DNA of 64,000 bases from Alphaproteobacteria bacterium (GCA_963422645.2 CAXXVO010000009.1:128001-192000), one strand, 5' to 3'. Counted from the first letter of the stretch, positions 2,197 through 33,267 are shown. Notes: generated by a model not told the origin, from the sequence alone. Numbers and translations are program-made.

Positions 2197-2216
2197 AATC
2201 AGACCTGGGCAGTTAC
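2197..2216 (-). repeat. Right terminal inverted repeat of the IS66 element
   Basis: Reverse complement GTAACTGCCCAGGTCTGATT matches the left end of the IS66 at 59592 (GTAACTGCCCAGGTC). Confidence 0.85.
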
Positions 2217-15542: not shown

Positions 15543-15829
15543 TGAACTGCTTCCCTATGGATTGACCGACCGTGTCATCTTTCTCAGCGCTCCTGCCGGC
15601 GCCCCCGCGCCCCTTGTTCCGGGTGGATCGAATGCTGTCTCTCTTGGAATTGGCGCCGGCGTGAGCGCCTTCAACGCCGGCCCGGGAATTATATTCTTAT
15701 GGTTGCCCTAATATGCCTTAGCGGCAGTCCCGCGCCGGTGTGCGGTCCCGTCGCGTTGCGGCGGGGGCGGGGCGGACGCAGAATGGAATGGGCCGATGCG
15801 GGCCTCGCAAAGGGAGCGGAGAGCCTTTC

Positions 15830-17056
15830 ATGGCAGGAGCGATGATCGACATTCCCGTCGCCGGCGGCGGCGAGTTCAGGGGCTATATGACGGTGCCGGA
15901 AGCGGGCAGCGGGCCGGGCCTGCTGATCGAGCAGGAGATTTTCGGGGTCAACGCGAGCCTGCGGGCGATCGCCGACCTTTACGCCGAGGAAGGCTATGTC
16001 TGCCTCGTGCCCGATCTCTTCTGGCGGATGGAGCCGGGCGTGGACCTCGGCTACGACCAGGCCGACTTCGCCAAGGCCTTCGGGTATTACCAGCGCTTCG
16101 ACGTGGACCAGGGAGTCGCCGACGTCGGTGCCGCGGTCGAAGCCTTGCGGGCGCGGCCGGAGTGCACGGGCCAAGTGGCGGCGATGGGCTTCTGCCTCGG
16201 CGGCAAGCTCGCCTACCTCACCGCCACGCGGCACGACGTGGACGCGGCGGTCTCGTTCTACGGCGTCGGCATCGAGGAGGCGCTGGACGAGTCAGGGGGT
16301 ATCGCTTGCCCCATGCTCATGCACTTCGCCGGCGAGGATGGGTTCGTCCCGCAGACGGCAGTGGATGCCATCTCGGACCACTTCGCCGATCGGCCGGAGG
16401 TGCGGATCCACGTCTATCCCGGCGTGGATCATGCCTTCTACAACCACGATCGGAGCGAGGTTTACCACCGACCGTCGGCCATGGTCGCTCATTCGCGCAC
16501 CATCGCGCTGCTGCGGGGTGCGATCGGCCCCGCTTACGACCTCGAGAGGCTGTGGGATCGTCACCTCGACTACGAGTTCGCGACGCGGGACACCGACAAG
16601 ACCATGGCCACCATGGTGGCCGAGCCCTACGTCAACCACATCCCGACAATGACCGGCGGCACCGGCGCCGACGCGCTGAGCCGCTTCTACGCCGAGCACT
16701 TCATCCCGAAGATGCCGAAGGACACGACGCTGACCCCGCTTTCGCGCACGGTGGGCGCGGACCGGGTGGTGGACGAGCTGATCTTCAGCTTCACCCACAA
16801 CGAGGAGATCGACTGGATGCTCCCCGGCGTGGCCCCCACGGGCAAGAGGGTCAGCGTGCCGCTGGTCGCCATCGTGGCCTTCCGCGGCGACAGGCTCCAT
16901 CACGAGCACATCTATTGGGATCAGGCCTCGGTGCTGGTGCAGATCGGTTTGCTGGAGCCGCAGGGGCTGCCTGTCGGCGGCGTCGAGACCGCGCACAAGG
17001 CCGCCGACGAGTCGCTGCCGTCGAACCGCCTGATCCCCGGCTGGTCCGACGACTAG
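15830..17056 (+). CDS. Dienelactone hydrolase fused to a SnoaL/NTF2-like domain
   Basis: QEIFGVN, nucleophile GFCLGG and HVYPGVDHAF. The C-terminal domain has PYVNHIPT and HEHIYWDQASVL. Confidence 0.88.
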   Translation: MAGAMIDIPVAGGGEFRGYMTVPEAGSGPGLLIEQEIFGVNASLRAIADLYAEEGYVCLVPDLFWRMEPGVDLGYDQADFAKAFGYYQRFDVDQGVADVGAAVEALRARPECTGQVAAMGFCLGGKLAYLTATRHDVDAAVSFYGVGIEEALDESGGIACPMLMHFAGEDGFVPQTAVDAISDHFADRPEVRIHVYPGVDHAFYNHDRSEVYHRPSAMVAHSRTIALLRGAIGPAYDLERLWDRHLDYEFATRDTDKTMATMVAEPYVNHIPTMTGGTGADALSRFYAEHFIPKMPKDTTLTPLSRTVGADRVVDELIFSFTHNEEIDWMLPGVAPTGKRVSVPLVAIVAFRGDRLHHEHIYWDQASVLVQIGLLEPQGLPVGGVETAHKAADESLPSNRLIPGWSDD

Positions 17057-17099: not shown

Positions 17100-19535
17100 A
17101 TGAGCACGCTCGGCACAGCGTTGGAACGAGTCGAGGATGCGGCGCTGCTCATGGGCTGCGGCCGCTATATCGACGACATGCCGGTTGCGCCCGGCACGGG
17201 CCACGCCGCCATCCTGCGCTCGCCCCACCCCCATGCGCGCCTCTTGAGCATCGACACGGCGGCGGCAGAGGCGCTGCCGGGCGTGCATGCCGTGGTCAGG
17301 GGAGAGGACGCGCGCGCCTGGTCCACGCCCTTCCTTGTTGGTGTGCGCCAGCCCATGGAGCACTGGTGCATCGCCACCGACCGGGTGCGCTACGCCGGCG
17401 AGCCGGTGGCCATCGTGGTGGCGGAGGACCGCTACCGCGCCGAGGACGCGCTCGTGCTCATCGACGTGCGCTACGAGCCGCTGGACGCCATCGTCGATCC
17501 CGAGGCAGCGCTTGGCGCAGATGCGCCCGTGCTGCACGAGGCTGTCGGCAGCAACCTCATCAGCGAGCGGAGGTTCCGCTACGGCGAGCCGGAGGCGGCG
17601 TTCGAGGCGGCGGCGCACAAGGTCGCGACCACGGTGCGCTACCCGCGCAATTCCTGCACCCCCATCGAGTGCCTCGGCCTGATCGCCGCCTACGACCCAG
17701 GCGAGGACGCCTACGACGTGCTCTCTCACTTCCAAGGGCCACTCACGCTGCATCCGGTCATGGCGCGGGCGCTCAAGGTGCCGGGGCCGCGCTTCCGGCT
17801 GCGCTCTGTACCGGATTCCGGCGGCAGCTTCGGGGTCAAGCAGGCGGTCTTCCCTTACATCGTCGCGATGGCGCTGGCGGCGCGAAAGGCCGCGCGGCCG
17901 GTCAAGTGGATCGAGGATCGGCTGGAGCATCTGCTGGCGGCCACCTCGGCGACCAACCGGGTGACGCGGATCGAGGCGGCTGTGGAGGCGAACGGCAGGG
18001 TCACGGCGCTCCGCCTCGACCAGCTCGAGGATTGCGGCGCCTACCTGCGCGCGCCCGAGCCCGCGACGCTTTACCGCAACCACGGCAACCTCACGGGCCC
18101 CTATCAGATCGCCCATCTCGCGGTGAGGAACCGTGTGGTCGTGACCAACAAGACGCCCACAGGGCTCAACCGGGGTTTTGGGGGACCGCAGCTCTACTAC
18201 GCGCTGGAGCGGCTGATGCAGCGCGTCGCCACAACCTTGAGCCTCGATCCGCTGGCGGTGATCCGGCGCAATCTGGTGCCGGCCGACGCCATGCCCTATC
18301 GCGCCGCCGCCGGCGCGGTGCTCGATGCCGGCGACTTTCCCGCCACCGTGGATTACGGCGCCGTCGAGGGAGCGCTCGACGCGCTGCGCGCCAAGCGCGA
18401 CGCGGCGCGGGCGGAGGGGCGGCTCTACGGTATCGGCTTCGCCGCCGCGGTGGAATCCAGCATCTCCAACATGGGCTACATCACCACCGTGCTCAGCGCC
18501 GAAGAACGCCGCAAGGCGGGACCCAAGGACGGCGCCGTCAGCTACGCCACGGTGGCGGTGGATCCTCTCGGCGCCGTGACCGTGACCGCCGATTCGATCC
18601 CGCAGGGTCAGGGCCACCGCACGGTGCTGGCGCAGGTGGTGGGCGACGCGCTGGGCCTCGCGCCGGAGCAGATCACGGTCGCACTGGAGCACGACACCCA
18701 GCGGGACCCATGGTCCATCGCCGCCGGCAACTATTCGAGCCGTTTCTCGGGCGCGGTCGCGGGTACCGCGCACCTCGCGGCGGTACGGGTGCGCGAGCGC
18801 CTCGCGCGGATCGCAAGCCAGCAGCTCAACGCGCGGCCTGAGGACGTGCGCTTCGAGCAGGGGCGCATCTTCGCCGCCGGCAACCCGGGCAACGATCTCG
18901 ACTTCCGCCGGGTGGCGTCGCTCGCCCACTGGTCGCCGGGCAGCCTTCCGGAGGGCGTGCCCCCTGCGCTGCGCGAGACCGCGCGCTGGACCCCGCCGGA
19001 GCTCACGCCGCCCGATGAGGACGACCGGGTCAACAGCTCGGCGGCCTACAGCTTCATCTTCGATTTCTGCGGGGTGGAGGTCGACCGTGCGACCGGCGCC
19101 GTCGCCATCGACCGCTACGCCACCACCCACGACGCCGGCCGTCGCCTCAACCCGGCGCTGGTGGACGGCCAGATTCGAGGCGCCTTCGCCCACGCGGTGG
19201 GCGCTGCGCTCTACGAGGAACTCGCCTATTCCGAGGACGGCAGCTTCCTCTCGGGCACCCTTGCCGATTACCTGGTGCCGACCGCCTGCGAGGTGCCGGA
19301 CCCGCTCATCCTGCACCGCGACACCCTGAGCCCGGTGACGCCGCTCGGCGCCAAGGGCGTCGGCGAAGGCAACTGCATGACCACGCCCGTCTGCCTCGCC
19401 AACGCCGTGGCGGACGCGCTGGGAGCGGAGTGCCTGGACCTGCCGCTCACGCCGGCCCGCATCGGCGCCTTGATCCACGGGCCCGAGAGGCCAGAGCCGG
19501 CGGCCACGGGTTTGGAACAGAACTCAGGGCTATAG
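17100..19535 (+). CDS. hmfA: Xanthine dehydrogenase-family Mo subunit, likely 2-furoyl-CoA dehydrogenase large subunit
   Basis: RVED..L..G...Y.DD, GGSFGVK, RGFGGPQ, QGQGH.T and GAKGVGE. Context of hmfB-E-like genes. Confidence 0.8.
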   Translation: MSTLGTALERVEDAALLMGCGRYIDDMPVAPGTGHAAILRSPHPHARLLSIDTAAAEALPGVHAVVRGEDARAWSTPFLVGVRQPMEHWCIATDRVRYAGEPVAIVVAEDRYRAEDALVLIDVRYEPLDAIVDPEAALGADAPVLHEAVGSNLISERRFRYGEPEAAFEAAAHKVATTVRYPRNSCTPIECLGLIAAYDPGEDAYDVLSHFQGPLTLHPVMARALKVPGPRFRLRSVPDSGGSFGVKQAVFPYIVAMALAARKAARPVKWIEDRLEHLLAATSATNRVTRIEAAVEANGRVTALRLDQLEDCGAYLRAPEPATLYRNHGNLTGPYQIAHLAVRNRVVVTNKTPTGLNRGFGGPQLYYALERLMQRVATTLSLDPLAVIRRNLVPADAMPYRAAAGAVLDAGDFPATVDYGAVEGALDALRAKRDAARAEGRLYGIGFAAAVESSISNMGYITTVLSAEERRKAGPKDGAVSYATVAVDPLGAVTVTADSIPQGQGHRTVLAQVVGDALGLAPEQITVALEHDTQRDPWSIAAGNYSSRFSGAVAGTAHLAAVRVRERLARIASQQLNARPEDVRFEQGRIFAAGNPGNDLDFRRVASLAHWSPGSLPEGVPPALRETARWTPPELTPPDEDDRVNSSAAYSFIFDFCGVEVDRATGAVAIDRYATTHDAGRRLNPALVDGQIRGAFAHAVGAALYEELAYSEDGSFLSGTLADYLVPTACEVPDPLILHRDTLSPVTPLGAKGVGEGNCMTTPVCLANAVADALGAECLDLPLTPARIGALIHGPERPEPAATGLEQNSGL

Positions 19536-19581
19536 CGCCCCGTTGTCGAAGTTCGTATCCACTCGCGCACCATCACATCAC

Positions 19582-19678
19582 GTCATGGCCGGGCTTGTCC
19601 CGGCCATCCATGGCATCGTCTCGCCGTCTCGGGGAAGGGCGCAACCACATGGATGCCCGGATCAAGTCCGGGCATGAC
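19582..19678. repeat. Alphaproteobacterial REP-like palindromic doublet
   Basis: GTCATGGCCGGGCTTGTCCCGGCCATCCA...TGGATGCCCGGATCAAGTCCGGGCATGAC. A second copy lies at 33120. Confidence 0.85.
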
Positions 19679-19695
19679 AGCGTGTGTGTGGTTAA

Positions 19696-21313
19696 CCCCA
19701 ATTATTCACGGCGTGTCTGATTTTGGGGTGGCGGACGTAGCGTAAGCCGTTGCCATCGGGTAGGAATTCGTTGTCCGAGCGTCTTCCTCTCCGAACAACG
19801 AAAACGCCACGCCCGCCATGACCGACGATAGCCTTCTCCCCTTCGATCTGCCAAGCGTCCAACGCAAGAAGGTGAGTGCCGCCTTCGATGGTGGCCTGAT
19901 CTCGTCTGACGGCGGCCTCGTCCTGTTGCGCGGGGCGGAGCGCCGCTTGCGCCTCGCCGAGACCCTGGCAGGCTGCATCCGCGACCGGCGCAATCAGGCG
20001 CAGGTGGTCCACTCGCTCTCGGCCATGCTGCGCTTTCGCATGCTGGCGATCGCCTGCGGTTACGAGGATGCCGACGACTGCGACGCGCTCCGCACGGACC
20101 CCCTGTTCAAGCTCGCCGCGGGCCAGGCGCCGGAGAGCGGGGGCGCGCTCTGCTCGCAGCCGACCATGAGCCGCCTGGAGAACGCACCGTCCCGCATCGA
20201 GGTGGCGCGCATGACGGCGGCGCTGGTCGATCTCTTCTGCCGCTCCTTTCCCGCCCCTCCCGCCGCCATCACCCTGGATATCGACGACACCTGCGATGCC
20301 GTGCACGGCCACCAGCAGCTCTCGCTCTTCCACGCCCATTACGACACGCGCTGCTTTCTCCCCGTCCACGTCTACCATGTGGAGAGCGGCAAGCCGGTGG
20401 CGGTCCTCCTGCGCCCGGGAAAGACGCCGTCCGGGCCTGAGGTCCGCACCCTGCTGAAGCATCTGGTCCGCCGTATACGCCGCCACTGGCCCCGCACCCG
20501 GCTCACCTTCCGCGGAGATTCCCACTACGGCCGCCCGCAGGCCATGGCCTGGTGCGAGGAGAACGGCGTCGACTACATCTTCGGCCTCGCGGGCAATCGC
20601 GCGCTGCATGCCCTCGCCTACGAGGTGGCCGACGACCTCAAGGTGCGCCGCGCCGAGGCCGGCGCAGACAGGATGCGCAGCTTCGCCGCCTTCGCCTACG
20701 CCGCCCGCTCCTGGGGCCGCGAACGCCGGGTCGTCGCCAGGCTAGAGGCGAGCACGCGCGGCTTCGACGCCCGCTATATCGTCACCTCGCTCAGCGGCGA
20801 GCCCCGCCATCTCTACGAAGTCCTCTACTGCGCCCGCGGCCAGGCCGAGAACCTGATCAAGCTGCACAAGGGCCAGCTCGCCTCGGACCGGACCTCTTGC
20901 CAAAGCCCGCTCGCCAACCAGCTCAGGCTGGTCCTGCACACCGGCGCCTACTGGCTCATGCTCGCCCTGCGCGACGCCATTCCCCGTGCTGCGCCGCTCG
21001 CCCGCGCCGAGTTCGCCACTCTCAGGCTGCGCCTGCTCAAGATCGGTGCCCGCGTCATCGAAAAGGCCGCCCGCATCCGTATCCACTTCTCCTCTGCCTG
21101 CCCGGACGCCGCCCTCTTCCGCCTGCTCGCAGGGCGCCTCGCAGCAGCAGGCCCCTGACCGCCGGGGCGCCGTGCCCCGTAAACCCGAACTCCCCCTCAA
21201 CCCCCAACGCCTGTCACAACAAAGCTCGAAACCGGATGCCTATGGCGTCAGGGGGAAAGCTCACGCCGTGCCATCGTGACCTCCAAAGGCAACGCAGGAT
21301 GAAGTAGGTCAGG
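19696..21313 (+). mobile_element. IS1380-family insertion sequence
   Basis: CC...GG ends with an imperfect IR. TTAA duplication at 19692-19695 and 21314-21317. Confidence 0.85.
19818..21158 (+). CDS. IS1380-family transposase
   Basis: FDGG.ISSDGG, GYED.DD, SQPTMSRLEN, LDIDDT, RGDS and Y.ARG.AEN.IK. Confidence 0.93.
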   Translation: MTDDSLLPFDLPSVQRKKVSAAFDGGLISSDGGLVLLRGAERRLRLAETLAGCIRDRRNQAQVVHSLSAMLRFRMLAIACGYEDADDCDALRTDPLFKLAAGQAPESGGALCSQPTMSRLENAPSRIEVARMTAALVDLFCRSFPAPPAAITLDIDDTCDAVHGHQQLSLFHAHYDTRCFLPVHVYHVESGKPVAVLLRPGKTPSGPEVRTLLKHLVRRIRRHWPRTRLTFRGDSHYGRPQAMAWCEENGVDYIFGLAGNRALHALAYEVADDLKVRRAEAGADRMRSFAAFAYAARSWGRERRVVARLEASTRGFDARYIVTSLSGEPRHLYEVLYCARGQAENLIKLHKGQLASDRTSCQSPLANQLRLVLHTGAYWLMLALRDAIPRAAPLARAEFATLRLRLLKIGARVIEKAARIRIHFSSACPDAALFRLLAGRLAAAGP

Positions 21314-21407
21314 TTAAATCGCTCGGAGAGCGCGCGGAGCGGTTCACCTGGATCCGAACCTCAAGAACCGCACAACTATTCCGACCCGTCGATTCTCGCG
21401 CTCTTCT

Positions 21408-21557
21408 TCAAGCGCTCAGGCAGCCTTCGACCGCCTCATAGAGGTTGCTCAGCAGTTCCTCGAAGGTCTCGCCCTGCGTCGCGCAGCCGGGGATTGCGGG
21501 CACCTCGGCCCAGTATCCCCCCTCTTCCGCCTCATGCACGATCACCTTCAATTTCAT
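21408..21557 (-). CDS. Short orphan HicB-like antitoxin (49 aa, possibly truncated)
   Basis: EEGGYWAEVPAIPGCATQGETFEE...N..EA motif. No hicA adjacent. Confidence 0.75.
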   Translation of the reverse strand: MKLKVIVHEAEEGGYWAEVPAIPGCATQGETFEELLSNLYEAVEGCLSA

Positions 21558-21647
21558 GGCTCGCTCCTCGCGGATACCGCCCTGCCGGCGGGCTCGGGGG
21601 ACCGCGCCATGATACCAACGCGCCCCCGATCCGGGTATAGGGACGCC

Positions 21648-22475
21648 ATGAAGCCTGCGCCCTTCGATTATCTGCGGCCGGACGACGAGGAGGAGGCGCT
21701 GGAGGCCCTTGCCGAGGCGGGGGACGACGCGCGGCTGCTCGCCGGTGGCCAGACTCTGATGCCGATGCTCAACATGCGGCTGGTGGAGCCGGCGGTGCTG
21801 ATCGATATCTCTCGCCTGTCGGGACGCGCCGGTATCTGCGACGACGGGAGCCACATCGAGGTCGGTGCGGCAGCGACCCAGGCCGATCTGGAGACCTGGC
21901 CCGCACTCGGCCGGCGCGCGCCGCTGCTGGCCCAGGCGTTGCCCCTGTTGGGCCACGTGCAGACCCGGAGCCGGGGCACGGTGTGCGGCTCCATCGCGTT
22001 CGCCGACCCGAGCGCGGAACTGCCGCTCTGCCTGGCCGTGCTGGGGGGCGAGGTCATGTTGCGCTCGCGCGCGGAAACGCGAACGCTGCAAGCCGCCGAG
22101 TTCCAGACCGGGATGCTGTCCACCGCGTGCCGCGAGGACGAGATGGTGGCGGCGGTGCGCTTCCCTACCGCAGAGCCGGGCGCGGGCTACGCCTTCACCG
22201 AGTTCGCGCGCCGGCACGGGGACTTCGCCATCGTCGCCGTTGCCGCCATCGCGCAGGCGAAGGGCATCAGGATCGGTGTGGGCGGTGTCGCCGAGAAGCC
22301 GGCGGTGGAGGAGTGGCCGGCACTTGCCGGCAGCGCCCTGGACGATGCGCTGAACGCGCTGGCCTGGTCGCTGGATGCCGCCGACGATGTCCACGCCAGC
22401 GGCCGCTACCGGCGCGAGCTGGTACGAAATCTCGGCAAGCAGGTGGTGCTCGCGGCGCAGGAGGCGCGGCCGTGA
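21648..22475 (+). CDS. hmfB: FAD-binding subunit (CoxM-like), furoyl-CoA dehydrogenase
   Basis: MKPAPFDY.RP, LAGGQTL.PMLN.RL, GH.QTR.RGT.CGS...ADP.AE and RRHGDFA. Confidence 0.8.
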   Translation: MKPAPFDYLRPDDEEEALEALAEAGDDARLLAGGQTLMPMLNMRLVEPAVLIDISRLSGRAGICDDGSHIEVGAAATQADLETWPALGRRAPLLAQALPLLGHVQTRSRGTVCGSIAFADPSAELPLCLAVLGGEVMLRSRAETRTLQAAEFQTGMLSTACREDEMVAAVRFPTAEPGAGYAFTEFARRHGDFAIVAVAAIAQAKGIRIGVGGVAEKPAVEEWPALAGSALDDALNALAWSLDAADDVHASGRYRRELVRNLGKQVVLAAQEARP

Positions 22476-22972
22476 AGCGGCTCGGCCAGGAGAGCCGCCA
22501 TCGGGTGGCGCTCACCCTCAACGGCCGCGAAGCCCAAGGCTGGGCGGAACCGCGCATGCTGCTGAGCGATTTCCTGCGCCACGAACTCGGTGCCACCGGC
22601 ACTCACGTGGGCTGCGAGCACGGGGTCTGCGGCGCCTGCACGGTGCGCCTCGACGGGGCCCCGGCGCGGGCCTGCCTGACGCTCGCGGTGCAGGCAGCGG
22701 GCCGGCGCGTGGACACGGTGGAGGGGTTGGCGCCGGAGGGCGAGCTGAACGACCTGCAGAAGGCGTTCCGCCGCCACCACGCGCTGCAATGCGGCTTCTG
22801 CACCGCCGGCATCCTGATGTCCCTCGACGCCTGGCTCGAAAGCCGGCCCACGCCGGACGAGGGCGAAGTCCGGGCGCTGCTCAGCGGCCACCTTTGCCGC
22901 TGCACCGGCTATTCGGGGATCGTCGCGGCGGCGCTGGACGTCGCGGAAGCGCGGCGGCGCGGGGATGACTGA
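22472..22972 (+). CDS. hmfC: 2Fe-2S subunit (CoxS-like)
   Basis: GCEHGVCGACT, QCGFCT and CRCTGY. GTGA overlap with the upstream gene. Confidence 0.82.
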   Translation: MKRLGQESRHRVALTLNGREAQGWAEPRMLLSDFLRHELGATGTHVGCEHGVCGACTVRLDGAPARACLTLAVQAAGRRVDTVEGLAPEGELNDLQKAFRRHHALQCGFCTAGILMSLDAWLESRPTPDEGEVRALLSGHLCRCTGYSGIVAAALDVAEARRRGDD

Positions 22973-24509
22973 TCTGGGCCGCACGCTGATCGCGGCGGCG
23001 GAGCGGAACCCCCGTGCGCTTGCCGTGGTCGATGGCGAGCGGCGCTTCGACTATGCCGCGTGGCTCGATAGGGCCGCGCGCCTCGCCGCGGGCCTCGGCG
23101 GCCTCGGGCTCGCGCAGGGCGACCGGCTCGCGGTCATCATGCAAAACCGGTGGGAGATGGCGGCGCTCCACTGGGCCAGTCAGCTTGCGGGCGTCGTCGT
23201 GGTGCCGCTCAACTGGCGAAGCGGTGCGGAGGAACTGGATTACTTCCTTGAGGATTCGGGGGCTGCGGCCTTGGCGTTCGACGAGAGTGCTGCGGCTGCC
23301 GTTGCGGGCTCGGCCTGCGCGGTCCAGCTCCGCCGTATCGCGGTGGGCGCCTCTCCCGGCGGCACGGTCGATTTCGGCGACCTGCTGGCGGCCCCGGCAG
23401 AGGCCACGCCGCGCGCAGGCGAAGACGACCTCTCGCTCATGCTCTACACGTCGGGCACCACCGGGCGCGGCAAGGGCGTGCCGCGCACGCACCGCGCCGA
23501 GCGTGCCTCGGCACTCGCCCACATCGCGCAGAACTGCTATCGCGCGGGCGAGCGCACGCTCGGCGTCATGCCGCTCTACCACACCATGGGCGTGCGCTCG
23601 CTGCTCGCGATGGCGCCGGTGGGCGGTGCCTTCGTCTGCCAGCAGCGCTTCGACGCGGCCGGTGCGCTGCGGCTAATCGAGGCGGAGCGGATCACCGCCC
23701 TCTACCTGGTGCCGACGCTCTACTACGACCTGCTGAGCAGCCCGGGGTTCGACGGCGCTGATGTCTCCTCGGTGCGCAAGCTGGGATTCGCCGGGGCGCC
23801 GATGGCCGAGGGGCTGCTGCGCCGGGTCGCCGATGCCTTCCGGCCCGAGCTCTTCGTCAACCACTACGGCTCGTCGGAAATCTACACCTTCACCATCGAC
23901 CAGAACGCGGCGGCCAAGCCGGGCTCGGCGGGCAAGGCAGGCATCAATCAGCGCATCCGCGTGGTCGAGATCGGCACCGACGACCCGGAGCGCACCGTCG
24001 ACGCGGGCGTCGAAGGCGAGGTGATCGCGAGCCTGGAGAGCGAGGAAGCCTTCGCGGGCTACTGGCAGCGGCCGGACGCGGACGCGCGCGCGCTGAAGCA
24101 GGGCTGGTATTTCACCGGCGATGTCGGCTATTGCGACGGCGACGGCGATCTCTTCGTGACGGGGCGGGTCGACGACATGGTGATCACCGGCGGCGAGAAC
24201 GTGCTGCCCGCCGAAATCGAGAGCGTGCTCTCGGTCCACCCGGCGGTGGCGGAGGCGGCGGTCGCGGGGCTCGCGGACGAACGCTGGGGGCAGAAGGTCG
24301 CGGCCTTCGTGGTGCGTAGCGGCATGGTGGACGCGGCGGCGCTCGACGCACACTGCCGCGCCTCGGTGCTCGCCGACTTCAAGCGGCCGCGCGCCTACGT
24401 CTTCGTCCGCGCCATCCCGAAGTCCCCGGTAGGCAAGGTGCTGCGGCGCAAGCTGATCGCGGGCGAGTACGACGAGGACAGTGAGTGCGGGGGCGGGAGA
24501 GGCGCGTGA
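22965..24509 (+). CDS. hmfD: Acyl-CoA synthetase, likely 2-furoate-CoA ligase
   Basis: YTSGTTGRGKG, NHYGSSE, FTGD, GRVDDM.I.GGEN and PKSPVGK. Confidence 0.8.
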   Translation: MTDLGRTLIAAAERNPRALAVVDGERRFDYAAWLDRAARLAAGLGGLGLAQGDRLAVIMQNRWEMAALHWASQLAGVVVVPLNWRSGAEELDYFLEDSGAAALAFDESAAAAVAGSACAVQLRRIAVGASPGGTVDFGDLLAAPAEATPRAGEDDLSLMLYTSGTTGRGKGVPRTHRAERASALAHIAQNCYRAGERTLGVMPLYHTMGVRSLLAMAPVGGAFVCQQRFDAAGALRLIEAERITALYLVPTLYYDLLSSPGFDGADVSSVRKLGFAGAPMAEGLLRRVADAFRPELFVNHYGSSEIYTFTIDQNAAAKPGSAGKAGINQRIRVVEIGTDDPERTVDAGVEGEVIASLESEEAFAGYWQRPDADARALKQGWYFTGDVGYCDGDGDLFVTGRVDDMVITGGENVLPAEIESVLSVHPAVAEAAVAGLADERWGQKVAAFVVRSGMVDAAALDAHCRASVLADFKRPRAYVFVRAIPKSPVGKVLRRKLIAGEYDEDSECGGGRGA

Positions 24510-25297
24510 CAACCAAAAGTCCTCTTGACGATCTCGACGGTTTCCGGGTGGAGGTCGACCACGCGGCGGCGCGCGCCGACATCGTGCTCGACCGCCCGCC
24601 GCTCAACGTCGTGCGCATGCCGCAGCGGGACCAGCTTGCCGCCGTCTTCGCCGCGCTCGATGCCGACGAGGCCGTGCGCGTGATCGTGCTCCGGGCTGAG
24701 GGGAAGCACTTTTCCAGCGGCGGCGACATCCCCGGCTTCATGACGCGCGCGCCGGAGCAGCTCGCGGTACTGGCGCGCAACGTGGCTGCGCCGGAGCGCT
24801 GTCGCCAGCCGGTGATCGCGGCGATCCACGGCTACTGCTTCGGCGTCGCGTTCGAGCTGTCGCTGGCCTGCGACTTCCGCATCGTGACGGAGAGCGCGCT
24901 GCTCGGGCTGCCGGAGCAGCGAATCGGCATGATCCCGGGCTCCGGCGGCTCGGCCCGGCTGGCCCGGATGATCGGCATCGGGCGCACCAAGGATATGGTG
25001 ATGCGGGCGAGGCGGCTCGCGGGCGCGGAAGCGCATGTCTGGGGCATCGCGCTCGACTGCGTGCCGGAGGATCGGCTTGCGGCCGTGACCGACGCGCTGG
25101 TGGACGAGCTCAAGGCGTTCTCGCCGCTCGCCCAGCGCACCGCGAAGAAGCTCCTCAACGAGGCCGAGGACGCGCCGCTCAGCGTCGCCATCGCCCTGGA
25201 AGGCGAGGCCTATGGTAGGCTGCGCTCATCGGCCGACTTCGCGGAAGGCGTCGCTTCCTTCACTGAAAAGCGCAAGCCGGTCTTCAAGGGAGAGTAG
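24506..25297 (+). CDS. hmfE: Crotonase-family protein, 2-oxoglutaroyl-CoA hydrolase-like
   Basis: LDGF.VE.D....RADIVLDRPP.NV..MPQRDQL, HFSSGGDI, PEQR.G.IPGSGGSARL and FSPLAQRTAKKLLN closely match HmfE as recalled. Confidence 0.82.
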   Translation: MTTKSPLDDLDGFRVEVDHAAARADIVLDRPPLNVVRMPQRDQLAAVFAALDADEAVRVIVLRAEGKHFSSGGDIPGFMTRAPEQLAVLARNVAAPERCRQPVIAAIHGYCFGVAFELSLACDFRIVTESALLGLPEQRIGMIPGSGGSARLARMIGIGRTKDMVMRARRLAGAEAHVWGIALDCVPEDRLAAVTDALVDELKAFSPLAQRTAKKLLNEAEDAPLSVAIALEGEAYGRLRSSADFAEGVASFTEKRKPVFKGE

Positions 25298-25304
25298 CGG
25301 TCGC

Positions 25305-26573
25305 ATGGACGACGCACCGCCCCCCGCAGCGACGGGCGCCGACACGGACGTGTCGGAAGGTTCGGCTTCGCCCGCCCGCCTCCGGCGCTTTCACCTCGAT
25401 CCGGTGGGCGGCATCGCCGGCGACATGTTCGCCGCGGCGCTGCTCGACGCCCGGCCCGCGCTTGCCGACGGCCTGCGCGCGACACTTGCCGGCCAGGACT
25501 TGCCGGCCTCTGTCGAGATCGCCATCGACCCGCATCGGGATTCGGCGCTGGCCGGTGTGCGCTTCAACGTGACGGCGCCGGAAGACGACGGGCACGGCCA
25601 CGTGCGGCTGGCGGAGGTGCGCGCGCGGCTGGAGGCCGCCCGCATCGAGCCTGCCCTGCGCTCGCGGGCGCTCGCGATCTTCGTGTTGCTCGCCGAGGCC
25701 GAAGGCGCGGTGCACGGGGTGGACCCGGCGGAGGTCACCTTCCACGAGGTGGGTGAGTGGGATGCGACCGTCGATATCGTCGCTGCCGCATACCTGATCG
25801 AGGCGCTGGGCCCGGCCCGCTGGTCCGTCGGTCCCGTCCCGCTTGGCTCGGGCCGGGTGCGCTGCGCTCACGGCCTGCTGCCGGTGCCGGCGCCTGCCGT
25901 GGTGCATCTCCTGCGGGGGCTGGTCACACACGACGACGGCATCGAGGGCGAGCGGGTGACGCCCACCGGCGCGGCCATTCTCAAGCATCTTGCGCCGGAC
26001 CCGGCGCCGGCAAGAGCGCCGGAGACGCTGGCGGGCGTCGGCACAGGCTTCGGCAGCCGCGCCTTGCCCGGCCTCAGCAACGTGCTGCGCGTTCTGGAGT
26101 TCGCGCCCGTCGCGCCGGCCGCAAGGCAGGAAGGGGTCGCGGTGCTGCGCTGCGAGATCGACGACCAGACACCGGAAGACCTCGCATTGGGTCTCGATCG
26201 TCTGCGGTCGCGCCCCGGCATCCTCGATGTCCTGCAATGGCCGGCCTACGGCAAGAAGGGCCGTATGGTGGCCGCGGTCCAGGTGCTTGCCGAGGCGGAC
26301 GCGCTCGACGGGGCGCTCGATGCGGTCTTTGACGAGACCACCACGCTCGGCGTGCGCTGGTCCACGGTTGCCCGCAGCGCGCTCGCGCGGGATGCGGCCT
26401 CCCACAGCGATGCGCTCGGCACGGTCCGGGTGAAGCGCGCGCGCCGGCCGGCGGGCACCGTGACCGCCAAGGCGGAGCTCGACGACCTCGCAGGCAGCGC
26501 GGGCCACGCGGTGCGCGAAGAGCGCCGGCGCGATGCGGAGGCAGCGGCGCGTGGACGGGGCGGCGATGACTGA
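25305..26573 (+). CDS. larC: Nickel-pincer cofactor nickel insertase LarC-like
   Basis: D...GIAGDM, AE..VHG.....V.FHEVG..D..VDIV, CAHG.LPVPAPA, E.VTPTGAAI, E.DD..PE, KKGR and ETTTLGVR. Confidence 0.9.
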   Translation: MDDAPPPAATGADTDVSEGSASPARLRRFHLDPVGGIAGDMFAAALLDARPALADGLRATLAGQDLPASVEIAIDPHRDSALAGVRFNVTAPEDDGHGHVRLAEVRARLEAARIEPALRSRALAIFVLLAEAEGAVHGVDPAEVTFHEVGEWDATVDIVAAAYLIEALGPARWSVGPVPLGSGRVRCAHGLLPVPAPAVVHLLRGLVTHDDGIEGERVTPTGAAILKHLAPDPAPARAPETLAGVGTGFGSRALPGLSNVLRVLEFAPVAPAARQEGVAVLRCEIDDQTPEDLALGLDRLRSRPGILDVLQWPAYGKKGRMVAAVQVLAEADALDGALDAVFDETTTLGVRWSTVARSALARDAASHSDALGTVRVKRARRPAGTVTAKAELDDLAGSAGHAVREERRRDAEAAARGRGGDD

Positions 26574-27387
26574 GCCGGCTTCCTCAGGCGCAGGCGCGCT
26601 GGGCGCGGTGCTCGACGGCGTTGGCCGCGCGGCGGTCGCGGTCAGCGGCGGAGTGGACAGCATGACGCTCGCGCTGCTCGCCGGACGCCGCCTGGGCCGA
26701 GAGAGCGCGATGTTCCACGCCGTCTCGCCTGCGGTGCCGCCGGAAGCGACCGAGCGGGTGCGCGCCTTCGCCGCGCAAGAGGGATGGCGGCTCACGGTCC
26801 TCGATGCCGGCGAGTTCGACGATCCCACCTATCGCGCCAACCCGGCGAACCGTTGTTATTATTGCAAAACAAACCTTTACGGCGCGCTTGCCGCCCGCAC
26901 TGACGCCACCCTGCTCTCCGGGACGAACCTGGACGATCTGGGCGACTGGCGGCCGGGGCTCAAGGCCGCCGGGGAGCACGGCGTGCGCCATCCCTTCGTC
27001 GAGGCCGGCATCGACAAGGCAGGGGTCCGCGCCATCGCGGCGGGCTTAGGCTTTGACGACCTGTCGCAGCTGCCGGCCGCGCCCTGCCTCTCCAGCCGCG
27101 TCGAGACCGGGCTTCGCGTGGAGGCGGACGACCTCGCCTCGATCCACGCCGCCGAGCGCTATCTCACCCGGCAGCTTCGGCCCGAGACGGTGCGCTGCCG
27201 CCGGCGCAAGGCCGGCATCGTGATCGAGCTCGACGCACCGACACTCTATGCGCTGAGCGAGAGCCGCCGCGCCGCGCTCGGCGACACCGTCGCCGGCATG
27301 TTCGCCACGGGCGCCGAGGCCCGGCCGGTCAGCTTCGCCCCCTACCGGGTGGGAAGCGCCTTCCTGAGGCCTGCGCAGCCGGCGTGA
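26566..27387 (+). CDS. larE: ATP-dependent sulfur transferase LarE-like
   Basis: PP-loop SGGVDS, NP.NRCYYCK, GTNLDDLGDWRPG and PCLSSR. Confidence 0.9.
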   Translation: MTEPASSGAGALGAVLDGVGRAAVAVSGGVDSMTLALLAGRRLGRESAMFHAVSPAVPPEATERVRAFAAQEGWRLTVLDAGEFDDPTYRANPANRCYYCKTNLYGALAARTDATLLSGTNLDDLGDWRPGLKAAGEHGVRHPFVEAGIDKAGVRAIAAGLGFDDLSQLPAAPCLSSRVETGLRVEADDLASIHAAERYLTRQLRPETVRCRRRKAGIVIELDAPTLYALSESRRAALGDTVAGMFATGAEARPVSFAPYRVGSAFLRPAQPA

Positions 27388-28055
27388 GCACGCCCACCGC
27401 CATCACCCTCGATCTCGAGCGCCGCGCGCGCATCGGCATCGAGGAGGCCGTGCTCTGCGAGGGCAAGACGGCGGAGCAGCTGGCAGACATCCTCGCGCGG
27501 GCGGAGGAGGCGGAGCGGAGCCTGCTGCTGACCCGTCTCGCCGCGGCCCAACTCGACGCCCTGCCCGCGGCGCTGGCCGGGCGCATCGACTACGAGCCGC
27601 TGTCGCGCACCGGTGTCTTCGGCACGGTCGCGGCTCCAGAAGGGGCTCCGCGGGTCGCGATCGTCTCCGCCGGGACCTCGGACCAGCCGGTCTGCCGCGA
27701 GGCCGCCCGCACTCTCGCCTATCACGGCCACGCTTCCGCAGAGATCGGCGATGTGGGGGTGGCCGGCCTGTGGCGGCTGATGGACCGGATCGACGAGATC
27801 AGAGCCTATCCCGTCGTCATCGTGGTCGCCGGCATGGACGCCGCGCTGCCCTCTGTGGTGGGCGGGCTGGTACCGGGCTTGGTGATCGCGGTGCCGACGT
27901 CGACCGGCTACGGCGTCGCAAGCGGCGGGTCGGCGGCGATGATGGCCATGCTCGCCTCCTGTGCGCCAGGGGTGGCGGTGGTCAATATCGACAACGGCTA
28001 CGGCGCCGCCTGCGCCGCACTGCGCGCGCTTCCGCTACTCGCCCGGGAAGATTAG
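27384..28055 (+). CDS. larB: NaAD carboxylase/hydrolase LarB (PurE-like)
   Basis: D..R..R.G..E.V.CEGK, AGTSD, DVGVAGL.RL, AGM..ALPSVV.GL, VPTS.GYG and NIDNGYGAA. Confidence 0.92.
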   Translation: MSTPTAITLDLERRARIGIEEAVLCEGKTAEQLADILARAEEAERSLLLTRLAAAQLDALPAALAGRIDYEPLSRTGVFGTVAAPEGAPRVAIVSAGTSDQPVCREAARTLAYHGHASAEIGDVGVAGLWRLMDRIDEIRAYPVVIVVAGMDAALPSVVGGLVPGLVIAVPTSTGYGVASGGSAAMMAMLASCAPGVAVVNIDNGYGAACAALRALPLLARED

Positions 28056-28103: not shown

Positions 28104-28895
28104 TCAGCCCGCGAGGGCGCGGGCGGCGGCGGTGCGCTCGTGCAGCCCGCGCAGCGCGCGCAACTCGTCCGCAGTCGGTGCCGGGGTCACGGTGAGGTCG
28201 TCGGCGACCTTGAGCGGCCAGCCGGTGGCGGCCAGCACGTCGTCGAGTGCCACGCCTGGATGGGTGTGGGTGAGAACCAGCTCGCGGCTCTCCGCATGGG
28301 GTTCGAGCACGCCGAGATCGGTGATGACCGTGCTGGGCCCGCGGCCGGGGAGACCTGAACGCTCGCGCCAGTCGCCGCCGGTCAGGTGGCCGGCCGAGGT
28401 CACGAACTCCACCTTCTCCACGAAGCCGCGCTTCGACTGGCGCATGATGACGAAGACCTCGCCGGCGAGCCCGGCGATCTCCGGCGCGCCGCCGGCGCCG
28501 GGAAGCCGGGTCCTGGGCTGCGCGTAATCGCCGATCACGGTCGTGTTGATGTTGCCGAAGCGGTCGATCTGCGCTGCGCCGAGGAAGCCCACCGTGATGC
28601 GCCCGCCCTGCAGCCAGTAGCGGAAGATCTCGGCGGTGGAGACCACGAAGTCGGCGGTCTCGGCGAGCTCGCTGTCGCCGATGGAGAGCGGCAGCACGGC
28701 GGGCTTCGCGCCGACGGTGCCGGACTCGTAGATCAGCACGGCGTCGGGCGCGTGGCTGACCCGGGCGAGGTTGGCGGCGGCGCTCGGCAGGCCGATGCCC
28801 ACGAAACACACGGTGCCGTTATCGACGAGCCGCGCTGCGGCGACGGTCATCATCTCGTCGGAGGAGAAGGGTTGCTCAGTCATGGGCGCAGTCAT
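28104..28895 (-). CDS. Family I CoA-transferase beta subunit (CatJ/GctB-like)
   Basis: FVGIGLP, LIYESG (catalytic Glu), GFLGAAQIDRFGNINTT and RLPGAGGA. Confidence 0.88.
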   Translation of the reverse strand: MTAPMTEQPFSSDEMMTVAAARLVDNGTVCFVGIGLPSAAANLARVSHAPDAVLIYESGTVGAKPAVLPLSIGDSELAETADFVVSTAEIFRYWLQGGRITVGFLGAAQIDRFGNINTTVIGDYAQPRTRLPGAGGAPEIAGLAGEVFVIMRQSKRGFVEKVEFVTSAGHLTGGDWRERSGLPGRGPSTVITDLGVLEPHAESRELVLTHTHPGVALDDVLAATGWPLKVADDLTVTPAPTADELRALRGLHERTAAARALAG

Positions 28896-29029: not shown

Positions 29030-30010
29030 GTGGCGCTGCTCACGGTCGAGAATCTGACCAAGATCTTCACGGTCGGCAAAGACGAGGACCTGATCGCGGT
29101 CAACAACGTCTCGTTCACGCTTGAGCGCGGCGAGACGCTGGGCTTGGTCGGCGAGAGCGGCTCGGGAAAGACCACGGTCGGCCGCTGCGTGCTGCGCCTG
29201 ATCGAGCCTACCGAGGGGCGGATCGCGCTCGGCGACCAGCAGATCAGCGAGCTCGACCCGGCCGGACTCCGGGCGCTCCGGGCGCGGATGCAGCTCGTCT
29301 TCCAGGACCCCTTCGGCTCGCTCAACCCCAGACTCACGGTCTACCAGACGGTGGACGAGCCGCTCGCGCTGCACGACGTGGGGCGCGCCGAGCGCAGGCC
29401 CCGGGTCGGCGCGATGCTGGAGCGCGTGGGGCTCGGCAGCGACGTCTTCAACTACTATCCGGCGGACCTGACCGCGAGCGAGCAGCAGCGGGTGGGGATT
29501 GCGCGCGCGCTGGTCACCGAGCCCGAGTTCGTGGTGCTCGACGAGCCGACCTCGATGCTGGACCCCTCGGCGCGGGCCGAAATCCTGGACCTGCTCAAGG
29601 CGATCCAGAACGAGACCGAGACCGCCTACATCTTCATCTCCCACGACCTGACCTCGGTTGCGAAGATCAGCCACCGCATCGCGATCATGTACCTCGGCCA
29701 CATCGTCGAGCACGCGCCCACCGACATCATCATGGAGAGCCAGCGCCACCCCTACAGCCGCGCCCTTCTCTCCGCCGTGCTCTTCCCCGATCCGCACCGC
29801 CGGCCCGACCCCTACGTGATCGAGGGCGAGATCCCGACGGCGATCAACCCGAAGCCCGAATGCCCGCTCTACGGCCGCTGCCCGATCCGCGAAGACGCCT
29901 GCCAAGACGCGGTACCGCCGCTGGTTGAGGTGGAGGCGGTGCACTATTCTGCCTGCCGGCGCTGGGACGACGTCGCGGCCTCGATGGCGGACGCGCGCGG
30001 TGCTGCGTAG
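29030..30010 (+). CDS. Peptide/nickel ABC transporter ATP-binding protein
   Basis: GESGSGKT, LDEPT, ISHDL, HPY and a C-terminal Cys cluster. The signature is degenerate (LTASEQQR). Confidence 0.9.
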   Translation: MALLTVENLTKIFTVGKDEDLIAVNNVSFTLERGETLGLVGESGSGKTTVGRCVLRLIEPTEGRIALGDQQISELDPAGLRALRARMQLVFQDPFGSLNPRLTVYQTVDEPLALHDVGRAERRPRVGAMLERVGLGSDVFNYYPADLTASEQQRVGIARALVTEPEFVVLDEPTSMLDPSARAEILDLLKAIQNETETAYIFISHDLTSVAKISHRIAIMYLGHIVEHAPTDIIMESQRHPYSRALLSAVLFPDPHRRPDPYVIEGEIPTAINPKPECPLYGRCPIREDACQDAVPPLVEVEAVHYSACRRWDDVAASMADARGAA

Positions 30011-30188
30011 CAAAGCCTGGAGCGGTGAGGCGGGCTGGTTCGCACCCGTCGATGACAAAATCGTTACCGCCAAATTTGAACGAGCGCTTGTTTCAATTTT
30101 CTTCTAATATCCGGCCGCGTGCCGGGACGCGCGCACCTGCGCGCGCGGGCCGACCCTGCGGTGCAGAGGGAGACTGAGGAGAGACGAC

Positions 30189-31856
30189 ATGACCTTGGGT
30201 GACATCACGAGACGCGGCCTCGCGGTCGCAGCCACTGCAGCGCTCGCCGCGCTGGTGGCAGCGGCACCGCCGAAGCCGGCCGCCGCCAATCAGGACACGA
30301 TGGTGATTGCCATCGGCGCCCTGCCGCAGGGCATCGACCTCGACAAGCACGTGAGCCCGCAGACCTGGAGCATGGGCGCACAGGTGCTGGAGGACGGTAT
30401 GAACTGGGAGTCGATCGACTTCCCCTTCTCGACAGGCGACGCCTGGGACCCCTCCACCATCCCGGGCTTCATGTATCCAGACTACATGGGCCAGAAGACC
30501 CTGGTGCCCGGCATCATCGAGAATTGCGAAATGGAGCCGGACGGCAAGCGCGCCGTCTATCACCTGCGCAAGGGCGTGATCTCGCCCTGGGGCAACGAGT
30601 TCACCGCCGACGACATGCTCTGGCGGATCGAGCGCGGCAAGGCCACGGGGGCGATCAACAATTTCCTCGAGTTCCTGCTCAACATGCCGGGCCAGACGAT
30701 CAATCCGCCTGAGAGCGGCGGATACGCCAAGATCGACGACCATACCGTCGAGGTCACCTCGTCCGCGCCCATGCCGCTCGCCTGCAAGGGGCTGACCAAC
30801 TACTACAACGCCTGGCTCGACTCCACCGAGATCATGAAGAACGCCACGGAGGAGGATCCCTGGGGCGACAAGTGGGTGTCGACCAACGGCGGCGGCTTCG
30901 GCGGCTACCGGGTGAGCGAGTGGACCGCCGGCAAGCGGGTCGTCATGGAGGCCAACGAGAACTACTGGCGCGGTGCGCCGGAGATCAAGCGCATCATCTA
31001 CCTGGTGGTGCCGGAATCGGCCAACCGCGTGGCGCTGCTCAAGCAGGGCAAGGTGCACATGGCCGAGGGGCTGTCGCCGGACGAGATCGTAGCGCTCGCT
31101 GACGATCCGAACGCGCGCGGCGTCGCCGTACGCGGCAACCAGTCCATGTGGATGATGATCAACAACACGCTGCCGCCCTACGACAACGTGAAGGTGCGTC
31201 AGGCGATGAATCACCTCATCAACCAGGAGGCGATCATCCGCGACATCTACCACGGCATGATGAACCGCTGGCAGGGCGTGATGCCCAGCACCTATCCGGG
31301 CTACGAAGCGCACCTCAAGTACGACTTCAACCCGGAGAAGGCGAAGGCGCTCCTCGCCGAGGCGGGCTATCCTGACGGCTTCGACGCCGAGCTCTCGTTC
31401 GACGCGGCCGTTTCGGCAATGGAATCCATCGGCGTCCTGCTGCAGAGCGACTTCAGGAAGGCCGGCATCAACCTCTCGCTGAGGAAGCTGCCGACCGCCG
31501 CGAACTCGGACAACGTGATGGGCAAGCAGGGCTCGCTCGCGCTCTGGACGGACATGCCGATTCAGCCGGACATCAACTACGCGCTGAAGCTGGTGTGGCC
31601 GACCAACGCGCTCGTCAACTACCACAACTTCACCGACTCCAAGGTCGACCAGGTGCTGAAGGACGGCGAAGGCGTGGTGGACGCGGAAGCGCGCATCGCA
31701 GCGCACGGCGGCATCCAGGAGTATATTCACGACCTGGCGCCGCTGGGCTGGATCGGCGAGCACTATTTCGCCGTTGGCCTCTCGCGCAAGGTCAGCAACT
31801 TCCGCTGGTACACGACGCAGTACTACCACGTGGCGGAAATGAGCATCGCCGACTGA
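30189..31856 (+). CDS. ABC substrate-binding protein family 5, probable Tat signal
   Basis: TRRGL followed by a hydrophobic signal ending AAA. Also LRKGV...GNEFTADD, VRQAM...IN and EKAKALLAEAGYPDGF. Confidence 0.9.
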   Translation: MTLGDITRRGLAVAATAALAALVAAAPPKPAAANQDTMVIAIGALPQGIDLDKHVSPQTWSMGAQVLEDGMNWESIDFPFSTGDAWDPSTIPGFMYPDYMGQKTLVPGIIENCEMEPDGKRAVYHLRKGVISPWGNEFTADDMLWRIERGKATGAINNFLEFLLNMPGQTINPPESGGYAKIDDHTVEVTSSAPMPLACKGLTNYYNAWLDSTEIMKNATEEDPWGDKWVSTNGGGFGGYRVSEWTAGKRVVMEANENYWRGAPEIKRIIYLVVPESANRVALLKQGKVHMAEGLSPDEIVALADDPNARGVAVRGNQSMWMMINNTLPPYDNVKVRQAMNHLINQEAIIRDIYHGMMNRWQGVMPSTYPGYEAHLKYDFNPEKAKALLAEAGYPDGFDAELSFDAAVSAMESIGVLLQSDFRKAGINLSLRKLPTAANSDNVMGKQGSLALWTDMPIQPDINYALKLVWPTNALVNYHNFTDSKVDQVLKDGEGVVDAEARIAAHGGIQEYIHDLAPLGWIGEHYFAVGLSRKVSNFRWYTTQYYHVAEMSIAD

Positions 31857-31909
31857 CGGCGAGATTGTAGAGCGTCCCTCGGGACGAGCGCCGATGAAGG
31901 CGCCCGGCG

Positions 31910-31943
31910 GGGGCGGCGGGAGGAACCCGCCGCCCCGGCTTTC
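31910..31943 (+). terminator. GC-rich hairpin after the SBP gene (attenuator or mRNA stabiliser)
   Basis: GGGGCGGCGGG-AGGAA-CCCGCCGCCCC followed by GGCTTT. Confidence 0.5.
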
Positions 31944-32016
31944 GTGCCCGCCTGCCGCTCTGGCGGCGGGCGCAGCATCCGCCCTGCGCGGCGTCGCGGG
32001 TTAGGCGGGCCAGGCC

Positions 32017-33072: not shown

Positions 33073-33119
33073 GGGCGGGTCCCGGAGCCGAAGATGAATA
33101 GGACCAGCATCCCCCTCGC

Positions 33120-33207
33120 GTCATGGCCGGGCTTGTCCCGGCCATCCACAAGAGCGCCCCGGTCTCGCCCGGCACCACTGGATGCCCGGAACCAGTCCGG
33201 GCATGAC
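33120..33207. repeat. Second REP-like palindromic doublet
   Basis: Same arms as 19582..19678 with a different spacer. Confidence 0.85.
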
Positions 33208-33267
33208 GATGTGGGGCCAACGGTCCTCTCGCGCATTCGCGGGTTGGGACACTAGGGGCGGCGCGCG

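Follow-up and report, generated by a model that had tools for sequence, protein, structure and literature searches.

Nickel-pincer cofactor genes joined to a furoate-type catabolic cluster in an alphaproteobacterium that encodes LarA homologues elsewhere in its genome

The hmf-lar locus

The window analyzed here is a 64,000-nt stretch (G+C ~68-72%) of the genome of an Alphaproteobacteria bacterium (GCA_963422645.2, CAXXVO010000009.1:128001-192000; G000:C10:128001-192000 in our numbering, in which genomes, contigs and loci are prefixed G, C and L). On its plus strand, between 15.7 and 28.1 kb, lie a gene for a DLH-SnoaL protein, five genes resembling hmfA, hmfB, hmfC, hmfD and hmfE of 2-furoate catabolism, and then larC, larE and larB, a gene set for biosynthesis of the nickel-pincer nucleotide (NPN), from which production of this cofactor is predicted. 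An earlier note on this DNA had interpreted the arrangement as a lar set without larA that serves an undescribed step of furan catabolism, with one of the operon's own proteins as a possible client. The linkage that it described has proved real, tight and conserved, while the orphan status of the lar genes and the client within the operon find no support.

The first gene (15740..17056, +) encodes a 438-aa fusion of a dienelactone hydrolase (DLH; Pfam DLH, 155.9 bits) with SnoaL modules (SnoaL_2, SnoaL), and is situated 43 nt upstream of hmfA (17100..19535, +), whose 811-aa product is the molybdopterin large subunit of a hydroxylase of the furoyl-CoA-dehydrogenase type, recognized by Pfam Ald_Xan_dh_C, MoCoBD_1 and MoCoBD_2. 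Beyond an insert described below are hmfB (21648..22475, +), coding for an FAD-binding subunit (FAD_binding_5, CO_deh_flav_C) with its start placed by homology to L008, and hmfC (22472..22972, +), coding for a 2Fe-2S subunit that NCBIfam gamma-subunit models match with scores under their cut-offs; the GTG start of hmfC and the stop of hmfB overlap by 4 nt. These are followed by hmfD (22965..24509, +), for an acyl-CoA (furoyl-CoA) synthetase (AMP-binding, AMP-binding_C), and hmfE (24485..25297, +), for an enoyl-CoA-hydratase-family protein (ECH_1) of the 2-oxoglutaroyl-CoA hydrolase type. All hmf reading frames are intact.

The five Hmf-like proteins are 55-73% identical to those of an hmfABCDE-type cluster on a plasmid of Cupriavidus pinatubonensis and their genes stand in the same order, in keeping with the earlier designation of the cluster as hmfABCDE-like; HmfA, HmfD and HmfE are respectively 63.9%, 62.5% and 66.4% identical to the proteins of strain HN-2, whose cluster served as a proxy for the C. 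basilensis HMF14 proteins. Membership in this group has been defined by at least 40% similarity of HmfA, HmfD and HmfE to those of HMF14 together with proximity of the genes (PMC3223595), and C. pinatubonensis JMP134, which has hmfABCDE only, is reported to grow on 2-furoate (PMC8091172). Large-subunit relatives at 68-79% identity bear the Joint Genome Institute label "2-furoyl-CoA dehydrogenase large subunit". Sampling of 400 other genomes of the class gave HmfA homologues at 48-76% identity in 22 of them (29 places), clearly separated from paralogues at no more than 40%. The A-B-C-D-E succession of Mo hydroxylase subunits, CoA ligase and ECH-family hydrolase, which is described as highly conserved (PMC3223595, PMC8091172), agrees in all five gene types and their order with the cluster of HMF14 and its proteobacterial orthologues, and is broken in the window only by the insert after hmfA. 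Judged by sequence, the hmfABCDE cluster of 2-furoate (furoyl-CoA) catabolism has an orthologue in this region.

The window departs from the known clusters in several respects. The C. pinatubonensis version reads LysR-hmfABCDE-MFS-XdhC, whereas here larCEB stands in place of the transporter and XdhC; the DLH-SnoaL gene lies upstream; insertion-sequence and hicB-like material separates hmfA from hmfB; and HmfA lacks the C-terminal CoxG-type extension found in many relatives. The DLH-SnoaL gene is kept upstream of hmfA in L008, L009, L011, L016 and G053 (73-93% identity), and its product is a candidate lactone hydrolase/tautomerase of the route, in which lactone opening is said to be either spontaneous or catalyzed (PMC3223595). 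Both this gene and the Amidohydro_2 gene found upstream of the hmf cluster in the more distant locus L045 would fit the lactone-opening step. In L045 genes for a CoxD-like AAA protein, a CoxE-like VWA protein and the Amidohydro_2 protein precede the hmf cluster (403-3331), and HmfA is a 980-aa protein with the CoxG-type extension.

The TAG stop of hmfE at 25297 is separated by 7 nt from the ATG of larC at 25305, and the junction, with both genes in the same direction, leaves no room for a terminator. A single gene, larC (25305..26573, +; stop at 26571-26573), comprises the LarC1 and LarC2 parts (Pfam Ni_insertion, 316 bits) of the nickel-inserting enzyme of cofactor synthesis. The overlap of larC with larE (26533..27387, +), encoding the sulfur transferase, amounts to 41 nt with the larE start at the ATG at 26533 and to 8 nt with the alternative ATG at 26566, and larE in turn overlaps larB (27384..28055, +), encoding the carboxylase/hydrolase, by the 4 nt GTGA at 27384-27387; the 7-nt gap and the mutual overlaps are thus as first read. 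A scan for promoters and terminators gave counts no higher than in shuffled sequence. The hmf and lar genes are presumably co-transcribed.

With the curated equivalog cut-offs of NCBIfam as the threshold of identity, all three Lar proteins score above it (LarC1 180.6 against 90, LarC2 104.6 against 50, LarE 235.2 against 150 for TIGR00268, and LarB 255.3 against 175 for NF033503). The genome holds one lar set with a single LarB, the only other match reaching 40 bits, under the cut-off. In alignments with the solved LarE of Lactiplantibacillus plantarum (PDB: 5UDQ, 6B2O), the window's LarE reads PCLSSR, with Cys facing the Ala of the deposited variant, and a CxxC motif (NRCYYCK) lies upstream of this Cys. 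We take this Cys to be the sulfur-donor position and the CxxC to be the cluster site, a combination presumably typical of LarE enzymes that are [4Fe-4S]-dependent and non-sacrificial, even though the name of the NCBIfam model says "sacrificial". The L. plantarum operon also has larD, and a separate operon there encodes a nickel transporter. As compared with that system, the window has LarB, LarE and LarC at the equivalog level, but its larC is one gene with both parts, no larA is adjacent, the clients are spread over other contigs, and the lar genes continue an operon that belongs to a different, catabolic pathway.

The operon layout given in the earlier note stands as to the linkage, but overlooked the ~2.1-kb insert between hmfA and hmfB. 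This consists of an IS1380-family insertion sequence (IS; 19693..21313, +) and a remnant of a hicB/UPF0150-like antitoxin gene (21408..21557, -; 49 codons, with weak Pfam UPF0150 and HicB_lk_antitox matches). The IS is 1,621 bp long, its ends having been set by comparison of the genome's full copies, and the transposase (ORF 19818-21158) scores 404.5 bits against the NCBIfam model transpos_IS1380 (cut-off 180). A BLAST search of the genome recovered four more full copies at 99.8-99.9% identity, on C6, C7, C8 and C9; partial and diverged copies are present too. The element appears to have been recently active. The insert is missing from close relatives, and in L008 and L016 the IS is absent from the site and hmfA abuts hmfB, with a gap of 6 nt in L008. 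The hicB-like remnant is homologous to a ~500-nt insert at the same site in L011 (L011 5821-6329); the cassette thus occurs at this junction in the window and L011 and not in L008 and L016, and ~220 nt of it are missing beside the IS in the window. A polar effect of the IS on hmfBCDE-larCEB is possible.

Recurrence of the junction and distribution of LarA homologues

The best 80 of the 320 LarC-related loci found were examined, all relatives being metagenome-assembled genomes (MAGs), and in six of these 80 hmf genes lie directly upstream of larC. In five of them (L007, L008, L009, L011 and L016) LarC is 69-92% identical to that of the window, and in the sixth, L045 from an Aestuariivirgaceae MAG, LarC shows 51% and HmfA 60% identity. 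For L006, the window's nearest relative, the contig opens immediately upstream of larC. The hmfE and larC genes of L045 share 1 nt, and its contig comes to an end after larC; a 2-kb contig from the same genome starts inside larE and proceeds into larB. In another genome of the window's family, G053, an hmfD-hmfE-larC-larE-larB block lies on the opposite strand, ~8.6 kb from DLH-hmfABC. Among metagenome hmfE loci (67-83% identity to L045, at least 1 kb of downstream sequence, n=51) one has larC on the 3' side (L148: hmfE-larC-larE). The linkage described earlier is borne out as tight and conserved by the six loci, the rearranged genome of the same family and the second lineage.

In trees of HmfA, HmfD and HmfE, L045 pairs with the unlinked cluster L105 (support of 99-100 in the Shimodaira-Hasegawa-like approximate likelihood ratio test, SH-aLRT), apart from the window clade, whereas in the LarC tree it falls within the sister group of the window clade together with two loci lacking the hmf link. 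Given these placements, at least two gains or losses of the junction are needed. Transfer of hmfDE-larCEB as a block between the two lineages was considered and rejected, as HmfA, HmfD and HmfE of L045 each pair with the unlinked cluster. The junction genomes are largely kin and effectively represent two lineages. As a gene arrangement the junction is unusual, recurring and non-random, but it does not prove that furan catabolism includes a new nickel-dependent step.

A search of the whole genome with the Lar_N profile (PF09861) returned three places, on C15, on C8 and further along C10, and no match inside the window, which agrees with the lack of a LarA-like ORF there as first noted. Since the single lar set is accompanied by two or more genes of the LarA family on other contigs, the premise of an orphan lar set fails. 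The earlier note had itself named the constant presence of larA in such genomes as contrary to its reading, and LarA homologues are carried by all seven junction genomes (the window's genome, all five of five further genomes, and G053). The genome has 8.5% contamination, and origin of the LarA contigs from it was entertained as an explanation; this was ruled out by the IS copies that they share with the window contig and by the same gene set in relatives with closed chromosomes. Copies of the IS are common to the window contig C10, C8 and C15, from which it follows that C8 and C15 belong to the same genome, and where relatives have closed chromosomes, a single replicon carries both the LarA genes and the hmf-lar locus. 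The only genome match to the aldo-keto reductase profile PF00248 is on C16, and those to the ornithine-cyclodeaminase profile PF02423 are on C6, C7 and C15; the window contains neither.

With its Lar_N and LarA_C domains, the 428-aa protein on C15 matches a broad-spectrum racemase from Isosphaera (9EID) with an E-value of 8e-95. It keeps the GLHRP and EPHxMAGxSGGRK stretches, and its GLHRP and EPHFMAGWSGGRK segments align with 9EID such that both catalytic His and the anchoring Lys stretches are kept (residue roles after PMC12393405). From these features it is predicted to be a canonical two-histidine LarA, the counterpart in this genome of the LarA of the L. plantarum system. An orthologue at 58-70% identity occurs within ~10 kb of larC in 25 of the 80 loci, directly beside larCEB wherever positions were listed, and also in G309, G166 and G432; larA beside larCEB looks like the usual arrangement. 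The C15 gene itself (within G000:C15:372582-381276, L129) is located between glutamate-synthase-like genes (GATase, GXGXG/Glu_synthase, Fer4_20 + Pyr_redox_2) and an aldehyde:ferredoxin oxidoreductase gene, a neighborhood unusual for a 2-hydroxyacid racemase. The third protein, of 607 aa (G000:C10:343247-343753; L003 904-2727), is encoded ~151 kb past the window's end and shows weak Lar_N and DUF362 similarity, with no solved relative detectable by sequence. Homologues of it at 38-55% identity lie within ~10 kb of larC in 12 of the 80 loci, and directly upstream of it in L078, making it a candidate further user of the cofactor.

The protein on C8 (G000:C8:761350-762672, L128 8350-9675; Lar_N 109.5 bits) typifies a distinct version of LarA, whose relatives are 471 aa long and whose best solved relative is the malate racemase Mar2 (E 3e-30). 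This 471-aa version is present in all seven junction genomes (the window's genome; G001-G004 and G053 at 87-91% identity; G005 at 71%). Outside the window's genome, its only orthologue in the class sample is in G053, the other 13 matches being other LarA types at 25-29%. It was not detected in 28 other lar-bearing genomes (23 LarB-positive genomes of the class sample, four from neighboring LarC clades, and G432), in the 400 genomes of a phylum sample or in a plasmid collection; the genome sets are samples, in which non-detection is not equal to absence, and one member of the class sample, G245, is an unpublished genome on which none of the claims depends. In metagenomes 1,094 proteins match at E <= 1e-30, and the 120 listed, all with at least 71% identity, include proteins from Gaiellaceae and Competibacterales MAGs. 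The gene never adjoins hmf or lar and its neighbors vary: in the window's family it is divergent from a gene for an old-yellow-enzyme + Pyr_redox_2 flavoprotein, while other genes flank it in G002 and G005.

Alignment of the 471-aa protein with four different solved LarA proteins places Val at the position of His108, and Asn followed by His at that of His174, whereas the equivalents of Lys184 and His200 of L. plantarum LarA are kept. Of its 120 relatives, 119 have Val or Ile in place of His108; the Asn at the His174 position is kept in at least 119, the His after it is invariant, and GGGGK and ESNH are invariant or nearly so. This is reminiscent of the single-catalytic-His LarA of Group 17 (PDB: 9Q2U, 9Q3J; described in PMC12393405), which likewise has Asn at the His174 position, both versions keeping the cofactor-anchoring Lys and the nickel-binding His. 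However, the matches to 9Q2U and 9Q3J are weak (E 4e-10 and 2e-09), and unlike the Group 17 proteins the 471-aa version lacks His108, has the invariant His after the Asn and is ~30 residues shorter.

The furoate cluster was also examined from the side of its cofactor requirement. No lar genes were found at any of the 29 places fetched around hmfA orthologues. LarB, which occurs in 25 of 401 class-sample genomes, is absent from 10 of the 12 genomes of other families with a complete or nearly complete hmfABCDE cluster; these ten are 91-100% complete, one of them with 7% contamination. In the remaining two (G309 and G166) larC-larE-larB-larA lies far from hmf. Since LarB is lacking in 10 of the 12, the furoyl-CoA route appears to have no need for the cofactor. 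Alignments of lar-linked with unlinked orthologues revealed in HmfA, HmfB, HmfC and HmfE no column with a residue common to all linked proteins and never seen in unlinked ones, in HmfD a single such column, Gly99, and in none of the proteins a Lys or His specific to the linked set. Moreover, eight hmf genes alone are reported to have conferred use of furfural and hydroxymethylfurfural on Pseudomonas putida S12 (PMC3223595). On both counts, the suggestion that a protein of the operon might itself be the client is not supported.

Role of the linkage

Given the above observations, the lar genes are probably the genome's cofactor supply for LarA-family enzymes acting in trans, and the Hmf enzymes are probably not among the clients. 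The only NPN genes of the genome adjoin, in the same direction, the 3' end of an hmfABCDE orthologue with a hydrolase gene in front, split after hmfA by an apparently recent IS1380 insertion. Under this interpretation, the Lar enzymes would make NPN for the canonical LarA on C15, the atypical 471-aa homologue on C8 and possibly the 607-aa relative on C10, while the Hmf enzymes would work without it. If the Hmf enzymes do without NPN and its users act in trans, the fusion would therefore give co-expression of cofactor supply with furoate-type catabolism. As to which LarA homologue would benefit from such co-expression, and why lar came to be joined to hmfDE, we can only infer an answer.

Several points weigh against such an interpretation. 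The junction is tighter and longer-lived than hitch-hiking would predict, as seen in the 7-nt gap and the 1-nt overlap of L045. In G053 the block from hmfD to larB is still together after its split from hmfABC, and the junction also occurs behind an hmf cluster that groups with an unlinked one (HmfA/D/E, SH-aLRT 99-100). No LarA homologue lies beside lar in the junction genomes, unlike in most relatives, and the promoter and terminator scans are uninformative on co-transcription.

There are two further explanations, each of which we regard as less likely than not. The fusion could be adaptive, with the 471-aa LarA homologue, though encoded outside the operon, performing an NPN-dependent step on a metabolite of furoate catabolism, for example a 2-hydroxy acid or lactone-derived side product related to 2-oxoglutarate, and with cofactor synthesis induced along with hmf. 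The 471-aa type is found in seven of seven junction genomes as against none of the 28 other lar-bearing and none of the 400 phylum-sample genomes; it is the sole Lar_N gene in G005, among whose relatives lar is rare (two of 41); and genus g3 of the window's family has lar, but neither an hmf orthologue nor the 471-aa protein was found there. Furthermore, two separately descended hmf clusters have gained or retained the junction, and between the window's genome and G005 the 471-aa protein is better conserved (71%) than its partners HmfA (60%) and LarC (50%). This recurrence, together with the co-occurrence with a rare LarA subfamily, could tentatively be taken to favor a physiological tie through that enzyme. 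However, there are only two independent lineages, the rest being kin, the 471-aa gene stands apart from hmf and lar amidst differing neighbors, and metagenomes contain many members of its family; no such step is required for 2-oxoglutarate to be formed by the canonical route, and a shared habitat or gene-transfer pool could yield the same pattern. Alternatively, the junction might have no function at all, lar having landed behind hmfE by a rearrangement and persisting there by inertia, either with its own promoter or by harmless read-through. The rarity of the linkage both among hmf clusters (none of the 29 places, one of the 51 metagenome loci) and among lar clusters (six of 80), the wealth of IS66, IS4-like, IS1380 and IS21 mobile elements in the region, and the unlinked state of both gene sets in G309 and G166 are consistent with this. 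It is harder to reconcile with persistence of the junction down to 64% LarC identity and through the rearrangement in G053, with the second occurrence behind a separately descended hmf cluster, where the genes overlap by 1 nt, and on the independent metagenome contig L148, or with its association with the rare LarA homologue.

By far the least probable is an NPN client inside the operon (HmfABC, HmfD, HmfE or the upstream hydrolase), or Lar proteins repurposed for another carboxylation, sulfur transfer or metal insertion. The tight same-strand packing from hmfB to larB and the lack in the window of any LarA, aldo-keto reductase or ornithine-cyclodeaminase gene would speak for it, as would the report that folds other than that of LarA use the cofactor (PMC13524815). 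Nonetheless, 10 of 12 genomes of other families that have an orthologous cluster lack LarB, the Hmf proteins of lar-linked clusters have no Lys or His of their own, and every linked genome has LarA-family clients. The Lar proteins, moreover, are ordinary equivalog-level members with the LarE Cys in place, and the upstream hydrolase differs by lineage, being DLH-SnoaL here and Amidohydro_2 in L045.

The range of NPN users beyond the LarA racemases is an active question, the aldo-keto-reductase family having been added only in 2026, and the window is a "lar without larA" case of the kind likely to surface in searches for such users. Semersky et al. (2026, PMC13524815) report the aldo-keto-reductase NPN enzyme NphT and LarC-anchored clusters without LarA within 20 genes. 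The locus would pass their filter as described there (LarC with LarB and LarE, no LarA nearby), but the window has no aldo-keto reductase gene, the genome's only one being on C16. The main text of that article does not mention molybdenum, xanthine, enoyl or crotonase, although its supplementary tables may list such families. The locus illustrates the need to inspect complete genomes in such cases, as its clients are probably just encoded elsewhere and most genomes run the neighboring pathway without the cofactor. Among the matches listed in a full-text literature search, no lar-gene paper contained "furoyl-CoA", and the text of a survey of 99 hmf-bearing proteobacteria nowhere contains "nickel" (PMC8091172). 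The locus offers a concrete lead in the form of a LarA subfamily, uncharacterized and strongly conserved, whose active site is non-canonical and which accompanies the hmf-lar fusion in two lineages. We advance only as a speculation, and one with less than even prospects, that the 471-aa protein is a new kind of nickel-pincer enzyme tied to furoyl-CoA catabolism, for whose joint induction the cofactor genes were fused to or kept behind hmfDE at least twice. Such a functional link, if true, would add a nickel-dependent reaction to the catabolism of furan and heteroaromatic acids and non-racemase chemistry to the LarA fold.

Flanking genes and mobile elements

Downstream of larB, and convergent with it, is a gene of the CoA-transferase family (28104..28895, -; Pfam CoA_trans), which occupies the same place in L006, L007, L008, L011 and L016 and is not counted as part of the proposed system. 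It is followed by genes assigned by Pfam to an Opp/Dpp/Nik-type ABC transporter (ATPase, binding protein, permease and permease-ATPase; 29030..34998, +), which are kept on the 3' side of lar in the closest relatives only. The binding protein scores far under the cut-offs of both nickel and peptide models, and a role of the transporter in nickel uptake is possible.

Mobile elements are numerous in the window and include IS66, IS4-like and DDE_Tnp_1 types, IS1380 and an IS21 pair; a Mu-type portal fragment is present too. Apart from the IS1380 element, these features lie at 462-2114, 5407-6144, 7589-9328 (-), 45836-48077 and 48970-50481 (-), and also at 5046-5699 (-). An IS21 pair with identical Pfam scores adjoins the LarA homologue on C8.

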